From a virus (Duplodnaviria > Caudoviricetes), in the IMG/VR virus record IMGVR_UViG_3300047276_000460, positions 1-56,709 of that record: DNA of 56,709 nt. The stretch is one strand, 5' to 3'. The notes under the pieces are model-generated. The model was not told the origin of the DNA and ran no database searches. It saw only the letters and a program-made list of their open reading frames with translations. Made by a program: the position numbers and the translations under genes. Shown here in pieces: positions 295 through 56,709 of this stretch (positions are counted from its first letter, which is position 1; each line of letters begins with the position of its first letter).

Positions 295-359
295 GTTGCT
301 GACACAGCCTCTTTGCCAGAGGCAGGGGGGTATTGCAACCCCCCTGTTGCGATTATTTT
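295..359 (-). promoter_or_regulatory. Early promoter cassette PE1
   Basis: - strand: AAAATAATCGCAACAGGGGGG TTGCAA-17nt-CAAAGA-6nt-GTCAGCAAC-GAAGGGAG; internal IR GCCTCT/AGAGGC. Confidence 0.75.
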
Positions 360-3451: not shown

Positions 3452-3523
3452 GTTTCTGACAAAGCCTCTCTGCCAGAGGTCAAAAAGGATTGCAACCCCC
3501 CTGTTGAAAAATAGTTGAAAAAT
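3452..3523 (-). promoter_or_regulatory. Early promoter cassette PE3
   Basis: TTTTTCAACAGGGGGG TTGCAA-17nt-CAGAGA-6nt-GTCAGAAAC; IR CCTCT/AGAGG. Confidence 0.75.
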
Positions 3524-3524
3524 T

Positions 3525-3845
3525 CTGCAAGTGGCCTGTTTTGCCGGTCGAGGCTGCAACAAGTGCAACAAATAGAAAATGGCGGAAAACTGCGGAATGC
3601 AACATTCATCTCAGGGGTTGAATGTTGCAACAAGTTGCAGTTGTTGCAGGGGTGCTGGTAAAGTTTTGCAAGTGCTGAAACCCGCAGAAAACCGCCAAAA
3701 ATTGGGGTTTTGGGGCTGCAACAAGTGCAACAAGTTGCCAACAAGTTGCACAAGTTGCAATGCAATCACCGGTAATAAGACTTCGTCTTATCCGGTTGTT
3801 GCGTTGCGTTGTTGCAGGTTGCGGATGCTGATGTTGCAAAGTTTT
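3525..3845. repeat. AT-richer non-coding array of TGCAAC/GTTGCA repeats (candidate origin or packaging region)
   Basis: 20-bp direct repeat at 3552-3571 and 3714-3733; tandem CAAGTTGC units 3731-3760; 11-bp IR 3598-3608/3619-3629; lies between the divergent early and late arms. Confidence 0.8.
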
Positions 3846-3888
3846 TCGGGCGGGTTTTTCGGGCAGAAATGGCCCCAGATCGCATGCC

Positions 3889-20200: not shown

Positions 20201-21464
20201 CCTCAAGGCGGAGGCATCCTCGGGTGAAACGCGCCTCACCTCTGGGTTCACGGCATTTGGTGGGTACACGACGTTCTACACCAATGGCTCCGAACGCGCC
20301 CGCATCGACAGCAGCGGCAACGTCGGGATCGGAACGACCAGCCCCTCATCCTTCGGCGGGTACACCAGCCTCACTGTCAGCAACCCCACAAATGGTGGTT
20401 TGGTTGAGGCGACAAACGGAACTCGCACGATCCGAATGCAGTCGCAGGCATCGGGCAGCGCGCTGATCGGAACGACCACCTCGCACAGCCTTGGCATCAT
20501 GACCGCTGGCGTGGAGCGGGTCACCCTCGATACCAGCGGCAACGTGGGGATCGCAACCACGACACCACAGCGCCCCCTGCACGTCTTTTATGACAGCGCG
20601 GTCACAGGTCAGTACACGATGGTCTTGCAGGGGAGGACTGGCGGCTACGGTGCAGGCGTCAGCTTCCAATCAAACCTGACTGGTGGATCGCTCGCCGAAA
20701 TGGCGCGCATCACGGCTGACGGCGAAGACGCATGGAACACGACCGCATCGACGCAAGATGCTGGCCTGCGCTTCTACACGTCGCTTGATGGCACGGTCGC
20801 TGAGAAAATGCGGATCACCTCAGCGGGCAACGTCGGGATTGGGACGACTGCGCCTAGCTACACGCTGGATGTCCGCACTAACGCGAGCAACGCACTGCGT
20901 GTTGGCTCCTCAAGCAACGCTTTTGGTACACTCCTGTCATGGGACAATCCATCGGGCGAAGCGCGCCTCACGTCACTGGGGGCCTATTCTCTTACATTCG
21001 GCACCAACTCCACTGAGCGCATGCGCATCGACAGCAGCGGCAACGTCGGGATCGGGACGAGTTCTCCGGTTAGTAAGCTGCACGTCAACACGTCAACAGG
21101 GGCTATCTACTCCACTACCGGAAACGATGCGGGTGGAACCCAAATCGGTGTTGACACCTCAGGTGTCTCTGTTCTGTCCGCCTATGCCACCAATGCAATT
21201 CGCTTTGGTTACAACAGCGGCTCGACCTTTGTTGAGACAATGCGCCTCAGTGCCAGCGGCAATCTCAGCATCGGGACAACTTCGCCGGGGACTGGCACCA
21301 TCCTTGATGTACAGTCCACCACAAAGGGCGTGCGCTTCCCGAACATGACGACGACGCAGAAAAACGCGATCACGCCTGCGGCTGGCACCGTTGTCTTCGA
21401 CACCACGCTTGGCAAGCTGTGCCTCTACACTGGTGCGGCGTGGCAGACGATTACCTCAGCTTAA
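17220..21464 (+). CDS. Long tail fibre protein
   Basis: 1414 aa G/T/S-rich; GTVTSV..SGGTTGLTF.G.PITTSGT and ERMRIDSSGNVGIGT.SP repeats. Confidence 0.88.
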   Translation: MSVPTNLIPTKITGLPEYDGTSQLGFFPYVLEGRTYKVQFAQIAATSAVPPTRSINTGVGLAGGGNLTQDRTIYIANEGVGYAQLNKSGVVAGTYGNALNVPAITVDDTGRVTSVVSTPIVLPQYVPTSRTITAGTGLSGGGDLSTNRTLSINFSSATPQPLGVATAGSGTQAARDDHVHPAVDLSDITETQGVLPLARGGTGNALSPVVGAVAYSSSDKLYLTPTAGNAGQVLTSAGGVGAPYWQTITGTGTVTSVNLTAGTGISVAGGPITTAGSITVTNTAPDQIVSLTGAGTTTVTGTYPNFTITSTDAYGGTVTSVAMTVPTGLQVTGSPITTSGTLAVSLQSGYSIPTTASQANWDTAYTDRLKWDGGATGLVAATGRTSLGATTVGGNFFTLTNPSAITFPRINADNTVSALDAASFRTAIGAGTGSGTVTSVNVSGNTTGLTFTGGPITTSGTLTLGGTLVVANGGTGATTAAGARTNLGAAASGANSDITSMSGITGSIGSPTYIQFGNGSGTTLAAGRMWYDQTTGSLNMGMGGGNITQQIGEELFVYGKASAAITDSPLQIVYQTGTVGASGVITFAPTVAGITDGNMIVGVATENIALNGFGRVTSFGIVHGITTNGTAYGEVWADGDVIWYNPVTGNPTNVKPVAPNIKVQVGILIKAGSGGSGSIQVEVNHGSVLGGTDSNVQITSVANNDLLQYSSSLGYWRNVALTSTAVTSFSGGTTGLTPSSATTGAITLGGTLNVANGGTGQTSYTNGQLLIGNTTGNTLTKATLTAGTNISITNGAGSITINATDQYTGTVTSVAASGGTTGLTFTGSPITTSGTITLAGTLGVANGGTGATTLTSGYLVKGNGASAVSASVVYDNGTNVGIGTSSPSAKLHVRPTTDVNHLFSFSGAAATYLAVNDASSAYVDCLKYANTFQFYTASTERMRILASGNVGVGTSSPNSKLEVFGGNVRSALASASSATLRGFVMASDSTEFASLKAEASSGETRLTSGFTAFGGYTTFYTNGSERARIDSSGNVGIGTTSPSSFGGYTSLTVSNPTNGGLVEATNGTRTIRMQSQASGSALIGTTTSHSLGIMTAGVERVTLDTSGNVGIATTTPQRPLHVFYDSAVTGQYTMVLQGRTGGYGAGVSFQSNLTGGSLAEMARITADGEDAWNTTASTQDAGLRFYTSLDGTVAEKMRITSAGNVGIGTTAPSYTLDVRTNASNALRVGSSSNAFGTLLSWDNPSGEARLTSLGAYSLTFGTNSTERMRIDSSGNVGIGTSSPVSKLHVNTSTGAIYSTTGNDAGGTQIGVDTSGVSVLSAYATNAIRFGYNSGSTFVETMRLSASGNLSIGTTSPGTGTILDVQSTTKGVRFPNMTTTQKNAITPAAGTVVFDTTLGKLCLYTGAAWQTITSA

Positions 21465-42846: not shown

Positions 42847-42861
42847 GTCGGTGTCTCCTGA

Positions 42862-42920
42862 GTTGCTGACCAACTCCATATGGCAGATCAACTAGCTGGT
42901 TGCAAGCGTTTTTGTATTTT
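42862..42920 (-). promoter_or_regulatory. Promoter cassette PE4 (direct-repeat copy A)
   Basis: TTGCAA-17nt-CATATG-6nt-GTCAGCAAC-TCAGGAG; 42852-42905 matches 43647-43700 at 49/54. Confidence 0.8.
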
Positions 42921-43641: not shown

Positions 43642-43656
43642 GTTACTGTCTCCTGA

Positions 43657-43720
43657 GTTGCTGACCAGCATGGTATGGCAGATCAACTAGCTGGTTGCAA
43701 CCCCCTCGCGAACTTTTTTT
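43657..43720 (-). promoter_or_regulatory. Promoter cassette PE5 (direct-repeat copy B)
   Basis: TTGCAA-17nt-CATACC-6nt-GTCAGCAAC-TCAGGAG; IR ACCAGC/GCTGGT. Confidence 0.8.
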
Positions 43721-43985: not shown

Positions 43986-45944
43986 TCAGTCCTTCTTGTA
44001 GCGGTAGGTTTCGAAGCCCGCAGCCGCCAGCGGCAGCCCAGTCGCCCACGAGGGGTTGGTCGCCATCAGTGACGCCAAGGTCGCGTGTGTATAGTGTGTA
44101 TCGTCCGGCGTCTCGCAGATCAGCTCGTCATGGACGCGCAGCACGACAGGGTAGCCCGCCAGTTCGGCGTTGCGCATGCCGGTCATGAAGACGTCCCGCG
44201 CAACAGCCTGCACAATGTTCTCGACCAGCTTGCCGCCATAGGTGTCGAGCGTGTCCCACTTGCGCGTGTACTGGTTGAGGCCCTCGTACAGGATGCGGCC
44301 ATCCTCGTCGATGTACGGCTTGCGGTAGCTGAGATAGCGCCCCGAGGGCAGGCGGATGCGCAGCCACTGCGTCCCCTGCCGGTCGTACGTGATGCCGAAG
44401 CGCAGGTCGCGCACGACCGTGGTGCTGTCCGGCTCGCGGATCGCGGCCTTGGCTGCGTTCTCGACGTCGTACCAGAAGCGCTTGGTGTTGGGGTGCGCCG
44501 CACGCCACGCCCAGACGATGTTTTGAATTTCTTCGTCGTCCATGGTGCTGAACACTTCACCGCCCATCTTGCGGTATGCGCCGAGACCGCCTCCATAGCC
44601 TCCCGACAATTCGGGAACTTTGCCTTGGTTTTGGCGCTCCGCTTTCGTCACGTCGCCGGGGTCTTTGCCGAGGATGCGGCCCGCTGTGATCTTGTACAGG
44701 TCGTGACCGATGCCGTTGTCGTAATCCTTGAAGGCCTGCACCTTCCACGTCTCGCCCGCCAGCCACGCCAGCACGCGCCCTTCGATGTTCGACAGGTCGG
44801 CGACGGCCAGCTTGCAGCCCGGCGCGGCGACGATGCAGCCGCGCACGGCGGACGCGCACAGGTCCGAGACGTTGTCGAAGATCAGGTCTTCGCAGTCCGC
44901 CTTCATCGCCGCGATGCCCGCCTCGATCTCGTCCGCCTCCATGCTCGGGCGCGGCAGGTTCTGCGGCTGGAAGATGCGCCCGGCGTCGCGGCCAGTGCGC
45001 GCGGCGCCACAAAACTGGAGCGTGCCGCGCAGGCGGCTGTCGCTCGACGTCGCCTTCAGGAGCACCTTGTACTTGGCTGGGCTGGTCGCGGCGGCCTGCG
45101 CCCTGTTCTCGAGCAGGAGACGCACCGGCTGCGGCAGATCGCCCTTCAGGAGACCGGCGACGGTGTCTTTGGTGAGGTCCGGCACGACGAAGCCGTGTTC
45201 CTCTTCGAGGTGCTTCAGGAGCACCGCGCGCTGCGTCGTGGAGCGAACTATACCGTCGGTGGCAGCGGTGGCAGCAGCGGCCAGAGTTCCCGAAGCTCGT
45301 TGAAAAGCTCGTAGGGCTGAGGCTGCGAGGTCGAGGTCAATGGCGACACCACGGTCATTAATTCTCTGATCGAGTTCCCATAGTTCGCGCTCAAAGTGAC
45401 TGGTATTCCATGTGGGGAGGGCTGCATGTACGTAGCGCATCGCGTCCACATCGAGCCGGGCGTACTCGACGAAGGCTGCCCATTCGGTGGGGTGTGTGTC
45501 ACGCGTGGCCCTCCGCAGCTTCACGTTCTTGGGACGTGGCTTTGTGAAGAGCTGTATCAGCTTCTTGCCCTCTTTGTCTTTAGCCTTGTCGGTCGGCACG
45601 CCCAGAACGTCGCAGAGCATGCCGAGCGACGCCGGGAGGCTGTGCGCCAGCGCCTGCACCATCGTGTCGTGTACGCGCTCGACAGGCAGCTCCACGCCCC
45701 TGTGACGCAGCACGGTGCGGTCGAAGGCGCTGTTGTGGATGACGACGCGGTCGGCGCGGTCGATGAGGCTCTGGACGTCGCGCAGGTCGCGCAGGCCCTC
45801 GGTCATGTCCCAGACGGTGACAGGGTCGGTGTCCCACGCGAAGGCGACGAGGAGCACTTCCGCGTCCTCGGCATAGCGATGCGCGCCGTTGGTGATCGGC
45901 GTCTCGCTGTAGGTCTCGAGATCAAGGTGGAGTGTTGCTGACAT
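43986..45944 (-). CDS. polA: Family A DNA polymerase with 3'-5' exonuclease
   Basis: ExoI DLETYS, HNSAFDR, YARLDV; motif A DLSNIEGR; motif B RNQGKVPELSGGYG; motif C VHDELI. Confidence 0.95.
   Translation of the reverse strand: MSATLHLDLETYSETPITNGAHRYAEDAEVLLVAFAWDTDPVTVWDMTEGLRDLRDVQSLIDRADRVVIHNSAFDRTVLRHRGVELPVERVHDTMVQALAHSLPASLGMLCDVLGVPTDKAKDKEGKKLIQLFTKPRPKNVKLRRATRDTHPTEWAAFVEYARLDVDAMRYVHAALPTWNTSHFERELWELDQRINDRGVAIDLDLAASALRAFQRASGTLAAAATAATDGIVRSTTQRAVLLKHLEEEHGFVVPDLTKDTVAGLLKGDLPQPVRLLLENRAQAAATSPAKYKVLLKATSSDSRLRGTLQFCGAARTGRDAGRIFQPQNLPRPSMEADEIEAGIAAMKADCEDLIFDNVSDLCASAVRGCIVAAPGCKLAVADLSNIEGRVLAWLAGETWKVQAFKDYDNGIGHDLYKITAGRILGKDPGDVTKAERQNQGKVPELSGGYGGGLGAYRKMGGEVFSTMDDEEIQNIVWAWRAAHPNTKRFWYDVENAAKAAIREPDSTTVVRDLRFGITYDRQGTQWLRIRLPSGRYLSYRKPYIDEDGRILYEGLNQYTRKWDTLDTYGGKLVENIVQAVARDVFMTGMRNAELAGYPVVLRVHDELICETPDDTHYTHATLASLMATNPSWATGLPLAAAGFETYRYKKD
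45248..45502 (-). CDS. Candidate overprinted 84-aa gene nested in polA (+1 frame)
   Basis: GGAGG SD 7 nt before GTG; polA codons turn rare while the alternate frame is GC3-rich. Confidence 0.5.
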   Translation of the reverse strand: MTHTPPNGQPSSSTPGSMWTRCATYMQPSPHGIPVTLSANYGNSIRELMTVVSPLTSTSQPQPYELFNELRELWPLLPPLPPTV

Positions 45945-45948
45945 ATTT

Positions 45949-46040
45949 CCCTCTTTGTTTAGGTGAGCCGCGCGCGTGTCGTGTCAGCAACTGGGAGAGG
46001 GAGCACCCAAAGTGCGCGCGGCTCGCCTAAACAAAGTGGG
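45949..46040 (-). ncRNA. polA 5' leader: 23-bp stem-loop whose loop is antisense to the early-leader motif
   Basis: Arms 45953-45975 / 46014-46036 (22/23 WC); loop holds GTCAGCAACTGGGAGAGGGAG on the + strand. Confidence 0.6.
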
Positions 46041-46078
46041 CCGCAACCACATATAGCGGTTGCGGCCACTCTTGGCAA
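46039..46078 (-). promoter_or_regulatory. Dual terminator/promoter PE6 upstream of polA
   Basis: TTGCCA-17nt-TATATG with the -10 at the apex of the GGCCGCAACC/GGTTGCGGCC stem; followed by CTTTGTTT. Confidence 0.65.
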
Positions 46079-46336
46079 CTAAATCAGGTCGAGACCCAAA
46101 GCCGCCTTATAGACGTCAAGGATCGCCTCAAATTCCTGACGCTTTTCCTTGTCCATCTTACGGATGCGGACGACTTCGCGGAGCACCTTGCCGACATATC
46201 CACGGGCCTTCGCCTCGATGTAGATGTCCTTGATGTCATCCGCGATGCCCGCCTTCTCTTCCTCGAGACGCTCGATGCGCTCGACGAGGAGGCGAAGCTC
46301 GTCCGCCGCGACGCTGTTGTGCCCCGCGCCGCTCAT
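46079..46336 (-). CDS. gapR: GapR-like (DUF2312) nucleoid-associated protein
   Basis: LR..VERIERLEEEK..I..DIKDIY.EAK.RGY..K.LR..VR.RK.D signature. Confidence 0.88.
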   Translation of the reverse strand: MSGAGHNSVAADELRLLVERIERLEEEKAGIADDIKDIYIEAKARGYVGKVLREVVRIRKMDKEKRQEFEAILDVYKAALGLDLI

Positions 46337-48846: not shown

Positions 48847-50867
48847 TATTCGTGGAAAATAACGTAGCCGCTGCGGACTTCGAACGGGCCGTCCTTTTCG
48901 GAGCCGAGCTGCCTGATCGCGCGGCCCATGTCCTGACGGCGCGTGTCGCGCTTGTCGGGCGAGACCGGCGCGGGAAGCGCCTCGGCGCAGAGCGCCGCAA
49001 ACTCGACGAGGGGCATCATGTCGATCTTGGGGTCAACCGTGGCGATCATCTCGATGGCGTGCGTCTGGTACTTGCCGTACCGCTTCTGCTTGCCGCTCGG
49101 GGCCTCGCTCGGCACCGGCTTCGGCAGCTCGGCGTCGATGGCGACGCAGCTCGTGATCGGGTCGCCGTCGCGGTCGAAGCCCAGATCGACGATCTCCAGC
49201 TTGAAGCCCCATGCGAGATTGTCGTCGCCGTCCTTCATCTTCGTGACGCGCATCTCGCGCGCGCCGTTCTCGTGGCGCAGCACCTCCAGCTCGGCGTCCG
49301 CCGCAGCGCGCATGCCCGACCAGCCGCGTGCGCCCTTGCTGGCGTCCTTCCCGGCGTGGTGGATGAGCATGACCGTCGCGCCTGTCACGCGCGTCAGCGT
49401 GCGGCAGTTGCGCAGGGCGACGCCCATGTCCTCGCCGCTGTTCTCGTTCGCACCCGGCGTCATTTGGGCGAAGGTGTCGGCGATGATGAGGATCGGGTCG
49501 CCGCCTGCGGCTGCGATGGCGTCGAGCAGCTCGCCGATGTCGTCGCTGTCCATGATGTTCGGCGCGGCGGTGATGACGGCGAGGTCAACATCCTCGGGAT
49601 CGACCCCATGGACTTTGCAGGCCGCCTTGGTGCGCTTGCCGACACCCCCGCCGCCTTCCGCCGCGATGTACAGGACGCGACCGCGCTTCGTCTTGCGCCC
49701 GCGCCAGTCAACGCCGCGCGCGATGGCGAAGGCCATGTCGAGCGCCATGAAGCTCTTGCCGCTGCCCGAGGCGCCGTACAGGACGATCAGGTCATCCTGC
49801 GGCAGTACGCCCTTGATGATCCACTCGCTCGGCGGCCTGTTGGCCACGGCGTCGAGGGTCTCGATCTTGAACTTGCCCGAGAAGTTCTCCGGCGTGCGGA
49901 AGATGTCGCGCGGCTCCGCGCGTGCCATGATCTCCTGCCGCTTGGCCTCGTCAATCGGCGCCCGGCTCAGGGAGGCGACCATGTGCTTCACTGTCGCCAT
50001 GGTGACTTGCGGGCGCCTGTCACCCTTGCGCCGCTCGAAGCTCTCCCACTGCCCGCGCAGGGCCTCCTCGCTGGGGTATTTACCGCCGAGGCACGACCAG
50101 TCGTTCCACAGGTCGAAGCCGGTGTCGTCGCCCTGCGTCTCGTGGTGCAGGGCCATGCCGACGCGCACCCACTCGTCGCGGCCCATGTCGGGGTCGAGCT
50201 GGTCGAGCAGCGCCTCCATCTCCTCGACCTCGAGGCCGAGGGGCGGCTTGCGCCCGAGCATGAAGTCGTCGGGGTCGGCGGCCTGCGCCTCGCGCGGTCC
50301 GAAGCGGGCGGCGCACAGCGCCTCCACCTCGGGCGTCACCTTGGCGATGGTGGTGTCGTTGCCCATGATCTCGCACAGGTCGAAGACGTCGCCAGTGATC
50401 GTGACGAAGCCGCTCTCGCTGAACGTCTCGATCCCGTAGGGGTGGCCGGTGGTCGGCGACTTGCGGTTGGGGAAGTGCCCCTCGTAGACGCAGCGCAGGC
50501 CTTTGCCCGAGGGCGTCACCTCACTGTACGTCGATGCCGCGATCTGCGCGACGTCGGGCGGCACGTCGCCCTTGGCGTCGATGCAGTTGTCGAAGTCGAG
50601 GATGAGCAGGCCGTGCTCGGCGCGCGGGGCGAAGCCGAGGCCGTCGTAATAGCCGTCGCTGCTGGCCAGCGCCTCGCGCGCCTCGTCGAACGAGACCATG
50701 GCGCGGACGTCGTCCTCGGCGCCTTGCCGACCGGCGCGCTTGCGCCCGCTGGCGTAGTACGGAACCTTGCGAGGCTTCGCCTCGTCAGGGAATTGCTCGA
50801 AGCGCCACAGCAGCCACGCGCGGTGGCGGCGCAGTCCTTCGGGCACATTGCTGGTGGACGCTGACAC
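48846..50867 (-). CDS. Primase-helicase (AEP-like primase, PriCT-2, AAA_25/RepA-like helicase)
   Basis: KVPYY, LDFD, E.TPSGKGL, W.RVGMALH..W..WS..KY, YGASGSGKSF, IADT, IHHAGKD..ARGWS. Confidence 0.9.
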   Translation of the reverse strand: MSASTSNVPEGLRRHRAWLLWRFEQFPDEAKPRKVPYYASGRKRAGRQGAEDDVRAMVSFDEAREALASSDGYYDGLGFAPRAEHGLLILDFDNCIDAKGDVPPDVAQIAASTYSEVTPSGKGLRCVYEGHFPNRKSPTTGHPYGIETFSESGFVTITGDVFDLCEIMGNDTTIAKVTPEVEALCAARFGPREAQAADPDDFMLGRKPPLGLEVEEMEALLDQLDPDMGRDEWVRVGMALHHETQGDDTGFDLWNDWSCLGGKYPSEEALRGQWESFERRKGDRRPQVTMATVKHMVASLSRAPIDEAKRQEIMARAEPRDIFRTPENFSGKFKIETLDAVANRPPSEWIIKGVLPQDDLIVLYGASGSGKSFMALDMAFAIARGVDWRGRKTKRGRVLYIAAEGGGGVGKRTKAACKVHGVDPEDVDLAVITAAPNIMDSDDIGELLDAIAAAGGDPILIIADTFAQMTPGANENSGEDMGVALRNCRTLTRVTGATVMLIHHAGKDASKGARGWSGMRAAADAELEVLRHENGAREMRVTKMKDGDDNLAWGFKLEIVDLGFDRDGDPITSCVAIDAELPKPVPSEAPSGKQKRYGKYQTHAIEMIATVDPKIDMMPLVEFAALCAEALPAPVSPDKRDTRRQDMGRAIRQLGSEKDGPFEVRSGYVIFHE

Positions 50868-50892
50868 GATCTTCTCCCCCTGTCCCTACGAC

Positions 50893-51909: not shown

Positions 51910-52221
51910 TCAGGCCTTCCGAGCCGAGACGGTGACGCGCGTGCTGCCCTTGACGGTCTTCTGGTTCTTGCTGAACCAGCGGCCATCGACGCCCAGCTCA
52001 CGGAGCTTGGCCTCTGCCGCCTTGGGGTCGAGCGTCTGGCGGTCTTCGGTGACCGAGACGGTGGCGCGGAAGGCAGCACCCTCGTGCGCGCCCGTGCCGA
52101 GCGCCTTGACTTCGTCGAGGAGGAAGGCCTCGACTTCCTTGAGTTCCGCGAGCTGCGCGCGGATCGCGCCGAGCCGGTCAACCGGGCTGATCGGGTCGAT
52201 GGTGAATGCAACTGCTGACAT
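51910..52221 (-). CDS. Hypothetical protein (103 aa)
   Basis: First ORF after PE9; GAAGGGAGAC SD. Confidence 0.75.
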   Translation of the reverse strand: MSAVAFTIDPISPVDRLGAIRAQLAELKEVEAFLLDEVKALGTGAHEGAAFRATVSVTEDRQTLDPKAAEAKLRELGVDGRWFSKNQKTVKGSTRVTVSARKA

Positions 52222-52238: not shown

Positions 52239-52303
52239 GTTACTGACCATCCCCGTATAGGGGCGACAAATGGGGAGTGCAACCCCCCTGTTGAAATTAT
52301 TTT
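52239..52303 (-). promoter_or_regulatory. Promoter cassette PE9
   Basis: AAAATAATTTCAACAGGGGGG TTGCAC-17nt-TATACG-6nt-GTCAGTAAC; CCCC-TATAC-GGGG. Confidence 0.8.
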
Positions 52304-53704: not shown

Positions 53705-53769
53705 GTTGCTGACCCACCCCATATAGCGACGGGGGTTGCGCATTGCAACCCCCCAGTTGAAATTATTTT
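53705..53769 (-). promoter_or_regulatory. Promoter cassette PE10
   Basis: AAAATAATTTCAACTGGGGGG TTGCAA-17nt-TATATG-6nt-GTCAGCAAC-ACAGGAG. Confidence 0.85.
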
Positions 53770-56454: not shown

Positions 56455-56709
56455 TCATTCTCCCTTTGAAATGGCGTTGCGGCTCTGCGCGTAGGCGGCG
56501 AGCTGTGCGTTGCGTGCGTCGATGATGACCTTGGTACCGAACTTGAGATCGGCAGCCACGGCAGCCATCAGGGCCGCGTTGAGGTGGGCGCCCAGCGACG
56601 CCGGACGGTCGTAGAAGTCGCCGGTCGCGATGTCGTAGAACGTGCCGTTATCGACGATGCGCTCCAGCTCGGCTGCGGCCTCGGCGTAGTAGTCGGGGTA
56701 TTCGACGTC
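56455..56709 (-). CDS. Hypothetical early protein, 3' part (start at 278 across the join)
   Basis: Frame continuous with 278-1; TGA at 56457-56455. Confidence 0.75.
   Translation of the reverse strand, partial: DVEYPDYYAEAAAELERIVDNGTFYDIATGDFYDRPASLGAHLNAALMAAVAADLKFGTKVIIDARNAQLAAYAQSRNAISKGE
56543..56709. repeat. Terminal direct repeat / circular assembly overlap (copy 2)
   Basis: Matches 1-167 with one mismatch. Confidence 0.95.

Follow-up and report, generated by a model that had tools for sequence, protein, structure and literature searches.

What is a long hairpin doing in front of a phage DNA polymerase gene, with a loop that reads as the reverse complement of the leaders of the phage's predicted early messages? 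The question is raised by the phage record IMGVR_UViG_3300047276_000460 of IMG/VR, whose whole length of 56,709 nt we refer to as the window and which is complete or nearly so (estimated 98% complete). The hairpin, which we call H2, lies on the minus strand just ahead of polA, the gene for a family A DNA polymerase. We lean, with moderate confidence, toward the explanation that H2 is a hairpin of the sense mRNA leader that hides the Shine-Dalgarno sequence (SD) of the following gene while its loop, an anti-leader, is offered for pairing with RNA. Comparison of sequences documents how H2 is built, that it is conserved, which strand folds, and that the loop co-evolves with the leader and with the start region of the gene that follows. 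The elements of the hairpin are these:

46014 to 46036, minus strand: 5' arm of H2 (from sequence, fold and covariation)
45976 to 46013, minus strand: apical loop of H2, 38 nt, with the anti-SD run GCUCCCUCUCCC and the anti-leader GUUGCUGAC(AC) (from sequence)
45953 to 45975, minus strand: 3' arm of H2, running into the SD GAGGGA at 45953-45948 (from sequence, fold and covariation)
45934 to 45944, minus strand: polA start region AUGUCAGCAAC, of which 10 nt (45943-45934) are complementary to the loop (from sequence)

The stem of H2 has 23 positions, made up of 22 Watson-Crick pairs and one C.A mismatch, and beyond an A.A mismatch it can be extended by CCC (46040-46038) paired with GGG (45951-45949). 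The AUG of polA is at 45944. The coordinates, the 38-nt loop and the CCC/GGG extension agree with a preliminary description of this DNA, which had also taken both irregularities of the stem to be G-U pairs on the plus strand; that is so for the C.A mismatch, which becomes G.U, and is wrong for the A.A mismatch before CCC/GGG, which becomes U.U. The 161-nt polA leader folds with a computed energy of -78.3 kcal/mol, against -47.9 +/- 3.7 for 200 shuffled sequences (z -8.2), none of which (0/200) did as well. Within the loop, GUUGCUGAC corresponds to GTCAGCAAC of the plus strand at 45983-45991 and is followed by GCUCCCUCUCCC, plus strand 45993-46004; the loop thus includes an exact reverse complement of GUCAGCAAC plus an anti-SD run. 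The loop motif is predicted to be mostly unpaired, with a mean probability of 0.51-0.81 over nine representatives, and the 3' five nt of the window's motif have an unpaired probability of at least 0.97. A search of the whole window with Rfam 15 gave no family at the gathering score, the c4 antisense RNA included, and at E values up to 10 the region 45800-46200 gave chance-level matches only (mir-610 at 27.3 bits against a cut-off of 90, sucC at 14 against 50).

What does the loop complement? Seven minus-strand cassettes in the window share a fixed geometry, namely TTGCA[ATC], 17 nt, a hexamer, 6 nt, GUCAG[C/A/U]AAC, an SD and a start codon. Their leaders, and two gene starts that carry related letters, are located as follows:

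295 to 303, minus strand: early cassette leader GUCAGCAAC (cassette scan)
1952-1960, 42862-42870, 43657-43665 and 53705-53713, minus strand: early cassette leaders (cassette scan)
3452-3460, minus strand: early cassette leader GUCAGAAAC (cassette scan)
52239-52247, minus strand: early cassette leader GUCAGUAAC (cassette scan)
50860 to 50869, minus strand: start region of the primase-like gene, UCGUGUCAGC, of which 10 nt complement the 3' part of the loop (from sequence)
52214 to 52221, minus strand: start of an open reading frame (ORF) of 103 amino acids, AUGUCAGC (from sequence)

Judged from its spacing to the -10 hexamer, the first base of the leader motif, a purine, would be the start of transcription. 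As the preliminary description had it, the loop is the reverse complement of the cassette leaders, exactly so in five cassettes and with one change in the other two. Exact copies of GTCAGCAAC number eight in the window, six on the minus strand and two on the plus strand. The minus-strand copies belong to the promoter cassettes at 303, 1960, 42870, 43665 and 53713 and to the polA start at 45942; the plus-strand copies are the H2 loop and one at 20376. Because the latter is inside a late ORF, the H2 loop is the only intergenic inverted copy of the motif, and this count over the whole window bears out the earlier claim to that effect. The starts of three genes were also read correctly before: the loop has a complement in cis in the 10 nt UGUCAGCAAC spanning the polA AUG, the primase-like ORF begins GUGUCAGC at 50867, and the ORF at 52221 begins as listed above. 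Exact complements to the loop of at least 10 nt occur at seven minus-strand sites, which are four cassettes, the polA start, the primase start and 36503 in the late region. We note in passing that the cassettes at 42852-42905 and 43647-43700 are identical at 49 of 54 nt and flank a small ORF and a Mom-like gene (PF25680, E 3.8e-22).

How general is H2? A scan with a pattern of the conserved arms returned at least 119 stretches (75 distinct cores), many of them chance matches in GC-rich coding DNA. A pairing filter, set at a minimum of 7 of 10 pairs in the outer stem and 6 of 7 in the inner, was passed by 48 candidates, and removal of five left 43 distinct homologues on IMG/VR contigs, here called alignment A1. 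Three of those removed (L101, L109 and L111) look like chance matches within coding sequence; in the other two (L110 and L117) the arms are the same, but the loop is not, the flanks are TTTT/AAAA and no start codon follows. In A1, 98.0% of 943 stem cells are paired and 13 of the 22 pairs have changed on both sides, whereas none of 500 shuffles attained any of five measures, and slid controls are 41-59% paired. A covariance model built from the 43 homologues, R1, has the arms GGCGAGSCGCG / CGCGSCUCACC, the C.A mismatch and a covarying outer stem. R1 matches the minus strand of the window at 70.7 bits (E 2.3e-19), by construction, as the window is in its seed. The independent matches are two loci in which H2 lies further upstream of polA (L037 and L017) and 15 of the 80 loci fetched by way of GapR, a sample not selected on the hairpin. 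Among loci fetched by way of polA, all 11 (L004-L014) have H2 upstream of polA, with a Mom-like gene between the two in L009, and the layout is that of a gapR-like stop codon, a terminator-like hairpin that we call T1, the long stem, the SD and a start codon. The window conforms: its H2 lies behind a gapR-like gene and a terminator-like hairpin, and its 3' arm abuts the SD of the next gene. The stems of the relatives have 22-29 bp, and the SD is in or beside the 3' arm in every homologue.

The contigs of four metagenome runs, which show neither RNA ends nor strand, differ from the window by compensatory changes on both outer arms (CCCUCGUUUC/GAAACGAGGG) and in the first polA codons; among the differences listed, none falls at 45962-46027, that is, in the inner stem and the whole loop, and eight more lie beyond that list. 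By this pattern of substitution, the inner stem and loop of H2 are under purifying selection. No cultured carrier of a long-loop H2 was found, a blastn search with the H2 regions of the window and of L004 giving no match among 50,697 GenBank phage records. R1 gave no match at E up to 1 on Caulobacter phage RW, which has a short-loop hairpin at that place. From the window segment 44500-47500, half or more of the sampled 31-letter words occur in runs labelled fresh water, estuary, sediment, groundwater, wastewater and drinking water, so that close relatives appear to be widespread.

The gene directly behind H2 is not always polA. In 21 of the 43 homologues it is another gene, encoding a protein of 97-100 amino acids in 16, one of roughly 220 amino acids in four and a Mom-like protein in one; in L124 no ORF was found behind H2. 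That H2 so often stands ahead of other genes argues against a polymerase-specific operator, and suggests that an operon begins with H2 and that genes have been inserted into it. As to the inserts themselves, the 97-100-residue protein (MKLTIPQIR...; L061, L091, L063 and others) and the roughly 220-residue protein (MIKAIETRYKGY...; L120, L151, L171 and L140) have no Pfam match, and the Mom-like insert between H2 and polA is that of L009. In L037, a 56.4-kb contig and otherwise a close relative of the window, the polA match ends at residue 447 of 652; the break may be an insertion (intein, intron or homing gene) or a break in the frame.

Which strand folds? Read in the mRNA sense, the 22 stem pairs of A1 include 33 G.U cells against three A.C cells, the former coming from no fewer than a dozen combinations of lineage and column. 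Since a G.U pair is an A.C mismatch on the opposite strand, the asymmetry points to the minus-strand RNA; on the evidence of these alignments, it is predicted neither by a pure double-stranded DNA palindrome nor by an antisense RNA. R1 agrees, scoring the sense strand above the antisense strand at every locus where both exceed 25 bits (70.7 versus 48.1 in the window); the weak match of L043 goes the other way, 23.1 versus 21.0 bits. The C.A mismatch itself (A1 columns 18/91; 46025 and 45964 in the window) lies within the otherwise invariant GGCGAG/CUCACC part of the stem and is kept in 42 of the 43 homologues, being U.U in L008. It may be a recognition feature or a device that places a cleavage.

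Does the loop keep pace when the leader changes? Covariation between loop and leader across relatives, the check proposed in the preliminary description, came out positive in five clades: a loop complementary to the phage's own early-gene 5' motif is found in the window and in its relatives, L150 excepted. There are five leader variants, GUCAGCAAC, AUCAGCAAC, AUCAAGCAAG, AUCAACAAC and ACCAACAAC, and a matching loop goes with each. The AUCAGCAAC clade (27 loci, 233 kb) has 37 sense copies of ATCAGCAAC outside H2, mostly in cassette context, and no antisense copy outside H2, the loop being the antisense copy. The five cassettes seen in three records of the AUCAAGCAAG clade (L065, L066, L112, L161 and L170) read ATCAAGCAAG in four cases and ATCAAGCAAC in one, all with an extra A, and the loops of this clade complement AUCAAGCAA(G/A), extra A included; in L112 and L170 the last G of the leader stands opposite a loop U, which is a wobble. 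AUCAACAAC occurs three times in L171, twice after a cassette-type promoter, and the loop there is GUUGUUGAU. Three loci fetched by way of GapR, L186, L188 and L250, have one, one and three cassettes with ACCAACAAC and the loop GUUGUUGGU; the loop of L007 also complements ACCAACAAC, and its one cassette reads ACCAACAAA. In L037, CAGCAACGAAGG is common to the cassette leader and the complement of the loop; the pattern NCAGCAACNNNNGG is uninformative on the cassettes of the L037 and L017 records, which read GAAGGA there. Three single-base differences between the clades are transitions, passable via a G.U intermediate.

A further variation on the theme is offered by the L010-type clade, which is without the +1 motif and instead has an extended SD, GGGACAACC, before many start codons, those of operon-internal genes included. 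The conserved block of its loop, AUGGUUGUCCC, is the complement of GGGACAACC and the sole antisense copy. Such a pattern is, from its placement in these sequences, hard to explain by a promoter or an operator. In every long-loop class a CUCC/UCCC run lies a few bases 5' of the anti-leader, so that the loop mirrors a whole 5' untranslated region, from +1 through the SD.

Does the loop also follow the start of its own gene? Genes behind H2 in the AUCAGCAAC clade start in two forms, ...(G)UAUCAGC-AUG and ...UUAUCAGC-AUG. Of 17 loops with GAUAC, 15 are accompanied by an xUAUCAGC-AUG start, one by UUAUCAGC-AUG and one by neither, and of 10 loops with GAUAAC eight are accompanied by UUAUCAGC-AUG, the other two having no such motif. 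L061 and L121 make the point within a single pair, as they differ only at the loop tip, in the start region and in a few bases just before the stem. The same outer stems and the same kinds of following gene are seen with either loop type, and where genes are inserted, the start region that the loop pairs with stays with H2 and does not move with the gene. The leader pairs via GUUGCUGA(C/U) and the start region via GCUGA(C/U)A(A)C; these use overlapping bases of the loop, so the two partners should exclude each other. The interpretation put forward in the preliminary description has gained partial support from covariation, from compensatory changes in the stem and from wobbles on the mRNA strand, L150 being the exception. 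These speak for an RNA element in which the loop has a functional link with the early leader and, for some clades, also with the start region of the gene behind it.

What surrounds H2? It lies in a spacer within the replication module, which is on the minus strand and has the order primase-like, DUF2800/PD-(D/E)XK, Enc34-type ssDNA-binding, GapR-like, the 134-nt spacer, family A polA, Mom-like and SNF2 helicase. The features concerned are:

50867-48846, minus strand: primase-like gene (Pfam domains PriCT_2 and AAA_25)
46079 to 46336, minus strand: gapR-like gene, 85 amino acids, directly upstream of the spacer (Pfam GapR_DNA-bd, E 4.6e-31)
43986 to 45944, minus strand: polA, family A DNA polymerase, 652 amino acids (Pfam DNA_pol_A and DNA_pol_A_exo1)
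46050 to 46078, minus strand: sigma-70-type promoter-like site, TTGCCA (46078-46073), 17 nt, TATATG (46055-46050) (read from the sequence)
46029 to 46067, minus strand: T1, intrinsic-terminator-like hairpin of 12 bp with a 5-nt loop and the tail CACUUUGUUU (terminator scan)

Along the minus strand from its 5' end, the spacer consists of the promoter-like site, T1, H2, the SD GAGGGA and the AUG, and in the relatives too a gapR-like gene precedes H2. The hairpin of T1 proper is 46067-46039, and its tail doubles as the start of the 5' arm of H2. With GC pairs at nine of its 12 positions, the 5-nt loop and the tail CACTTTGTTT, T1 has the make-up of an intrinsic (Rho-independent) terminator, a function that is predicted. 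T1 is the first-listed site of the terminator scan, which is not enriched over the window as a whole (13 found versus 12.4 expected), and a strong hairpin with a pyrimidine tail is at the place of T1 in all relatives with enough upstream sequence. The promoter-like site has its -10 inside the T1 loop and the same geometry as the cassettes, and from this spacing its start would be near 46043-46042. Relatives such as L104, L091 and L112 have a near-consensus promoter, TTGGCA/T, 17 nt, TATAAG/TATAGG, within the final ALG.DL codons of gapR; transcription from it would begin at the foot of T1, and a regular expression finds it in 26 of 38 rows with enough upstream sequence. In the window the -10 of this gapR-end promoter has decayed (46098-46120), and a second promoter-like site overlaps T1 instead.

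Two observations concern other parts of the genome. The window has a terminal direct repeat of 167 nt (1-167 and 56543-56709, 99% identical), which, if not a true direct terminal repeat, would come from overlapping ends in the assembly of a circular or permuted genome. A dense array of TTGCAAC and CTTGTTGCA words in both orientations occurs at 3525-3860, after the last early cassette and before the late genes, and from its letters looks like the operators or iterons of a DNA-binding protein; an inverted repeat akin to these words, TGCAA-N7-TTGCA, occupies the -35/-10 spacer of the relatives' cassettes.

How else might H2 be explained? The stem might act in cis only, as an RNase III site, a 5' stabiliser or an SD lock, and the likeness of the loop to the leader would then be the relic of a duplicated or inverted leader, or a site for an RNA-binding factor. 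We regard this as doubtful while giving it real weight. Stems of about 20 bp or more suffice for RNase III, and by length H2 qualifies as a substrate with its 22 pairs here and 22-29 in relatives; the SD, too, lies within or directly beside the 3' arm throughout the homologues. Some relatives with a short, motif-free loop (Caulobacter phage RW, L039 and L205) keep T1, the long hairpin and the SD without an anti-leader, so that the core job of the stem needs no loop motif and the anti-leader loop is an addition. A relic would decay, however, yet the loop tracks five leader variants and its motif is invariant where adjacent loop bases and the outer stem vary, and a factor that binds leader RNA would not bind its complement. 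Alternatively, the motif might be recognised as double-stranded DNA by a protein of the phage or of the host, for instance a repressor at every early +1, with the copy in the polA leader reversed and the hairpin incidental. One might think this attractive, as a change of binding specificity would also make all copies within a genome co-vary, and further repeated DNA words are present at promoters (the TGCAA/TTGCA spacer inverted repeats and the GCAAC/GTTGC array at 3525-3860), so that DNA-binding regulators clearly act in the region. We nevertheless find it improbable. The motif sits in the apical loop of a covarying stem with wobbles on one strand; the inverted copy keeps an SD-like purine run that a DNA site would not need; the L010-type motif is at the starts of operon-internal genes and not at promoters; the leader G versus loop U of L112 and L170 is a wobble in RNA, but a mismatch between DNA sites; and the 233 kb of the AUCAGCAAC clade hold no other reversed copy.

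A plus-strand transcript, folded as the mirror image of H2, might present the leader itself and so act as a decoy on a protein or on ribosomes; this alternative, offered in the preliminary description, must be called very unlikely. The conserved C.A mismatch (42/43) would be a G.U pair on that strand, but the count of 33 G.U versus three A.C in the mRNA sense puts the mismatches on the plus strand, and by eye no cassette-type -35/-10 is seen upstream of the motif on the plus strand of the window or of the AUCAGCAAC clade. A plus-strand ORF of 14 codons behind the SD-like run of the window's loop was also considered and rejected, as it is absent from L004 and L008. Chance resemblance in a GC-rich intergenic palindrome we are prepared to set aside almost entirely: a post hoc 9-mer match in one 134-nt spacer is not very improbable alone, but independent clades repeat the relation with other variants of the motif, and in 233 kb of relatives no copy is reversed except the loop. 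An invertible segment, an integron attC site and an origin were dropped as candidates; no homologue has the hairpin in the other orientation, conservation does not extend to the GTTTAGG/CCTAAAC ends of the window, and the outer stem is free to covary.

Several points weigh against an anti-leader loop that pairs with RNA, among them the short-loop relatives just mentioned and the fact that a single protein, recognising the motif in double-stranded DNA whichever way it points, would give rise to the same covariation. The assignment of transcription starts depends solely on spacing from -10 hexamers, several of which match poorly. The one visible cassette of L150 has ACCAACAAC while its loop complements AUCAGCAAC, giving seven of nine pairs and two A.C mismatches, and the window's cassette at 3460 and the L007 cassette have one wobble-incompatible change each. 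Whole-loop duplex energies of the cassettes, -24 to -32 kcal/mol, compare with a background of -18.6 +/- 4.6, and several coding windows outscore the cassettes, down to -41; the cassettes are better singled out by exact complements of at least 10 nt. The percentage of paired cells in A1 is inflated by the pairing filter, which leaves the two-sided changes unaffected. By our estimate a cis pseudoknot over a 23-bp stem with a 9-nt linker would be geometrically tight. Finally, no RNA run was listed among the sequencing runs that match this DNA. As a separate observation on the energies, the minus-strand coding segments 2210-2262 and 820-872 form duplexes of -40 to -41 kcal/mol with the whole loop, above every cassette; these probably reflect composition, G-rich segments lying against the C-rich half of the loop.

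How might an RNA-pairing H2 work? In a large group of uncultured phages, it would stand first in the polymerase section of the replication module. The long stem would bury the SD of the next gene and so keep that gene poorly translated, and the loop would show, largely single-stranded, the complement of the leader common to early sigma-70-type transcripts, from +1 through the SD. The loop could pair in trans with early 5' leaders, or in cis with its own translation initiation region. We infer that the leaders are true 5' ends of transcripts, that the pairing takes place in the cell, and that it has an effect there. Early messages might be blocked at their SDs once the leader-bearing RNA accumulates; early leaders might bind the loop, freeing the replication gene, polA, from its self-inhibition; or RNase III might cut the stem of 22-29 bp, freeing the SD and a small hairpin RNA. 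These outcomes may combine. More tentatively, one may imagine a circuit made of RNA only, in which a shared early tag acts as a barcode that is read by the one loop of the replication operon; pairing with the tag and pairing with the start region would be exclusive, the hand-over from early functions to replication would be timed in this way, and at least five lock-and-key classes would insulate co-infecting relatives from one another. Such classes would act much like immunity or incompatibility classes in co-infection.

If the pairing is real, several consequences follow. H2 would represent a new and common class of phage riboregulator, widespread in uncultured phages of fresh water, sediment, groundwater and wastewater, and it would provide a simple, protein-free means of addressing all early messages by a shared 5' tag and of tying them to the start of replication. 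The co-varying tags and loops would amount to a ready-made collection of orthogonal RNA switches. An exact-word search of open-access text did not find a published description of H2, which is weak evidence of its absence from print.

What known systems does H2 resemble? By analogy, H2 would work most like the leader-encoded antisense RNAs C4 of phages P1 and P7 and CI of P4, without being a member of those families. The C4 boxes differ between the heteroimmune phages P1 and P7, and the Rfam entry for c4 is, we presume, RF01695. The CI immunity RNA of P4 is derived from a leader, and one of its boxes pairs with several sites on its own transcripts; it causes premature termination and confers prophage immunity. 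Unlike P4 CI, H2 has a complement that covers +1 to the SD, suggesting translational control. With C4, H2 shares the position of a regulatory RNA at the head of the operon it controls and the use of short complementary boxes that include the ribosome-binding region. For the immI region of P1 and P7 (c4-icd-ant), part of one account states that full repression of ant requires the C4 antisense RNA, and names a C4 binding site (PMC8198154, an account that cites Citron and Schuster 1990). Unlike those of C4, the candidate targets of H2 are the 5' ends of many separate early transcripts, its position is in the polA leader, and its phages look lytic; H2 also differs in having no Rfam match at the gathering score and in being known here from sequence alone.

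For the individual steps that we propose, other systems serve as models and not as families to which H2 would belong. The RNase III hairpins of the T7 early mRNA are long intercistronic stems with internal mismatches; RNAIII-type small RNAs of Staphylococcus have CUCC/UCCC loops that pair with SDs; and DsrA activates rpoS by an anti-antisense mechanism, in which an RNA acting in trans opens a self-inhibited leader. In its position before a phage DNA polymerase gene, H2 recalls the gp43 operator of T4 and RB69, which, in the portion of the literature consulted, is a hairpin that begins immediately ahead of the ribosome-binding site of the polymerase gene, extends into it and acts in translational repression (PMC3014915). 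That operator is described there as a hairpin-loop of 16-18 bases and is bound by a family B polymerase, while H2 has a stem of 22-29 bp, a loop of 30-50 nt and a family A polymerase; and unlike the operator, H2 often precedes other genes in relatives.

The final likeness is to the start-associated sequences (SAS) of the Cluster K mycobacteriophages. In the sections of the paper that concern it, SAS is a short asymmetric motif found in one orientation before the starts of many non-structural genes, its reader, RNA or protein, is left open by the authors, and four Cluster K genomes hold a single reversed copy (PMC3203893). The L010-type motif GGGACAACC is placed in a similar way. Host phylum and motif are different, and those sections describe neither a hairpin around the reversed copy nor covariation of loop and motif (PMC3203893). 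If the reading of H2 as an RNA-pairing leader is true, it offers an explanation for start and leader motifs that are shared within a genome and still await one, SAS among them.

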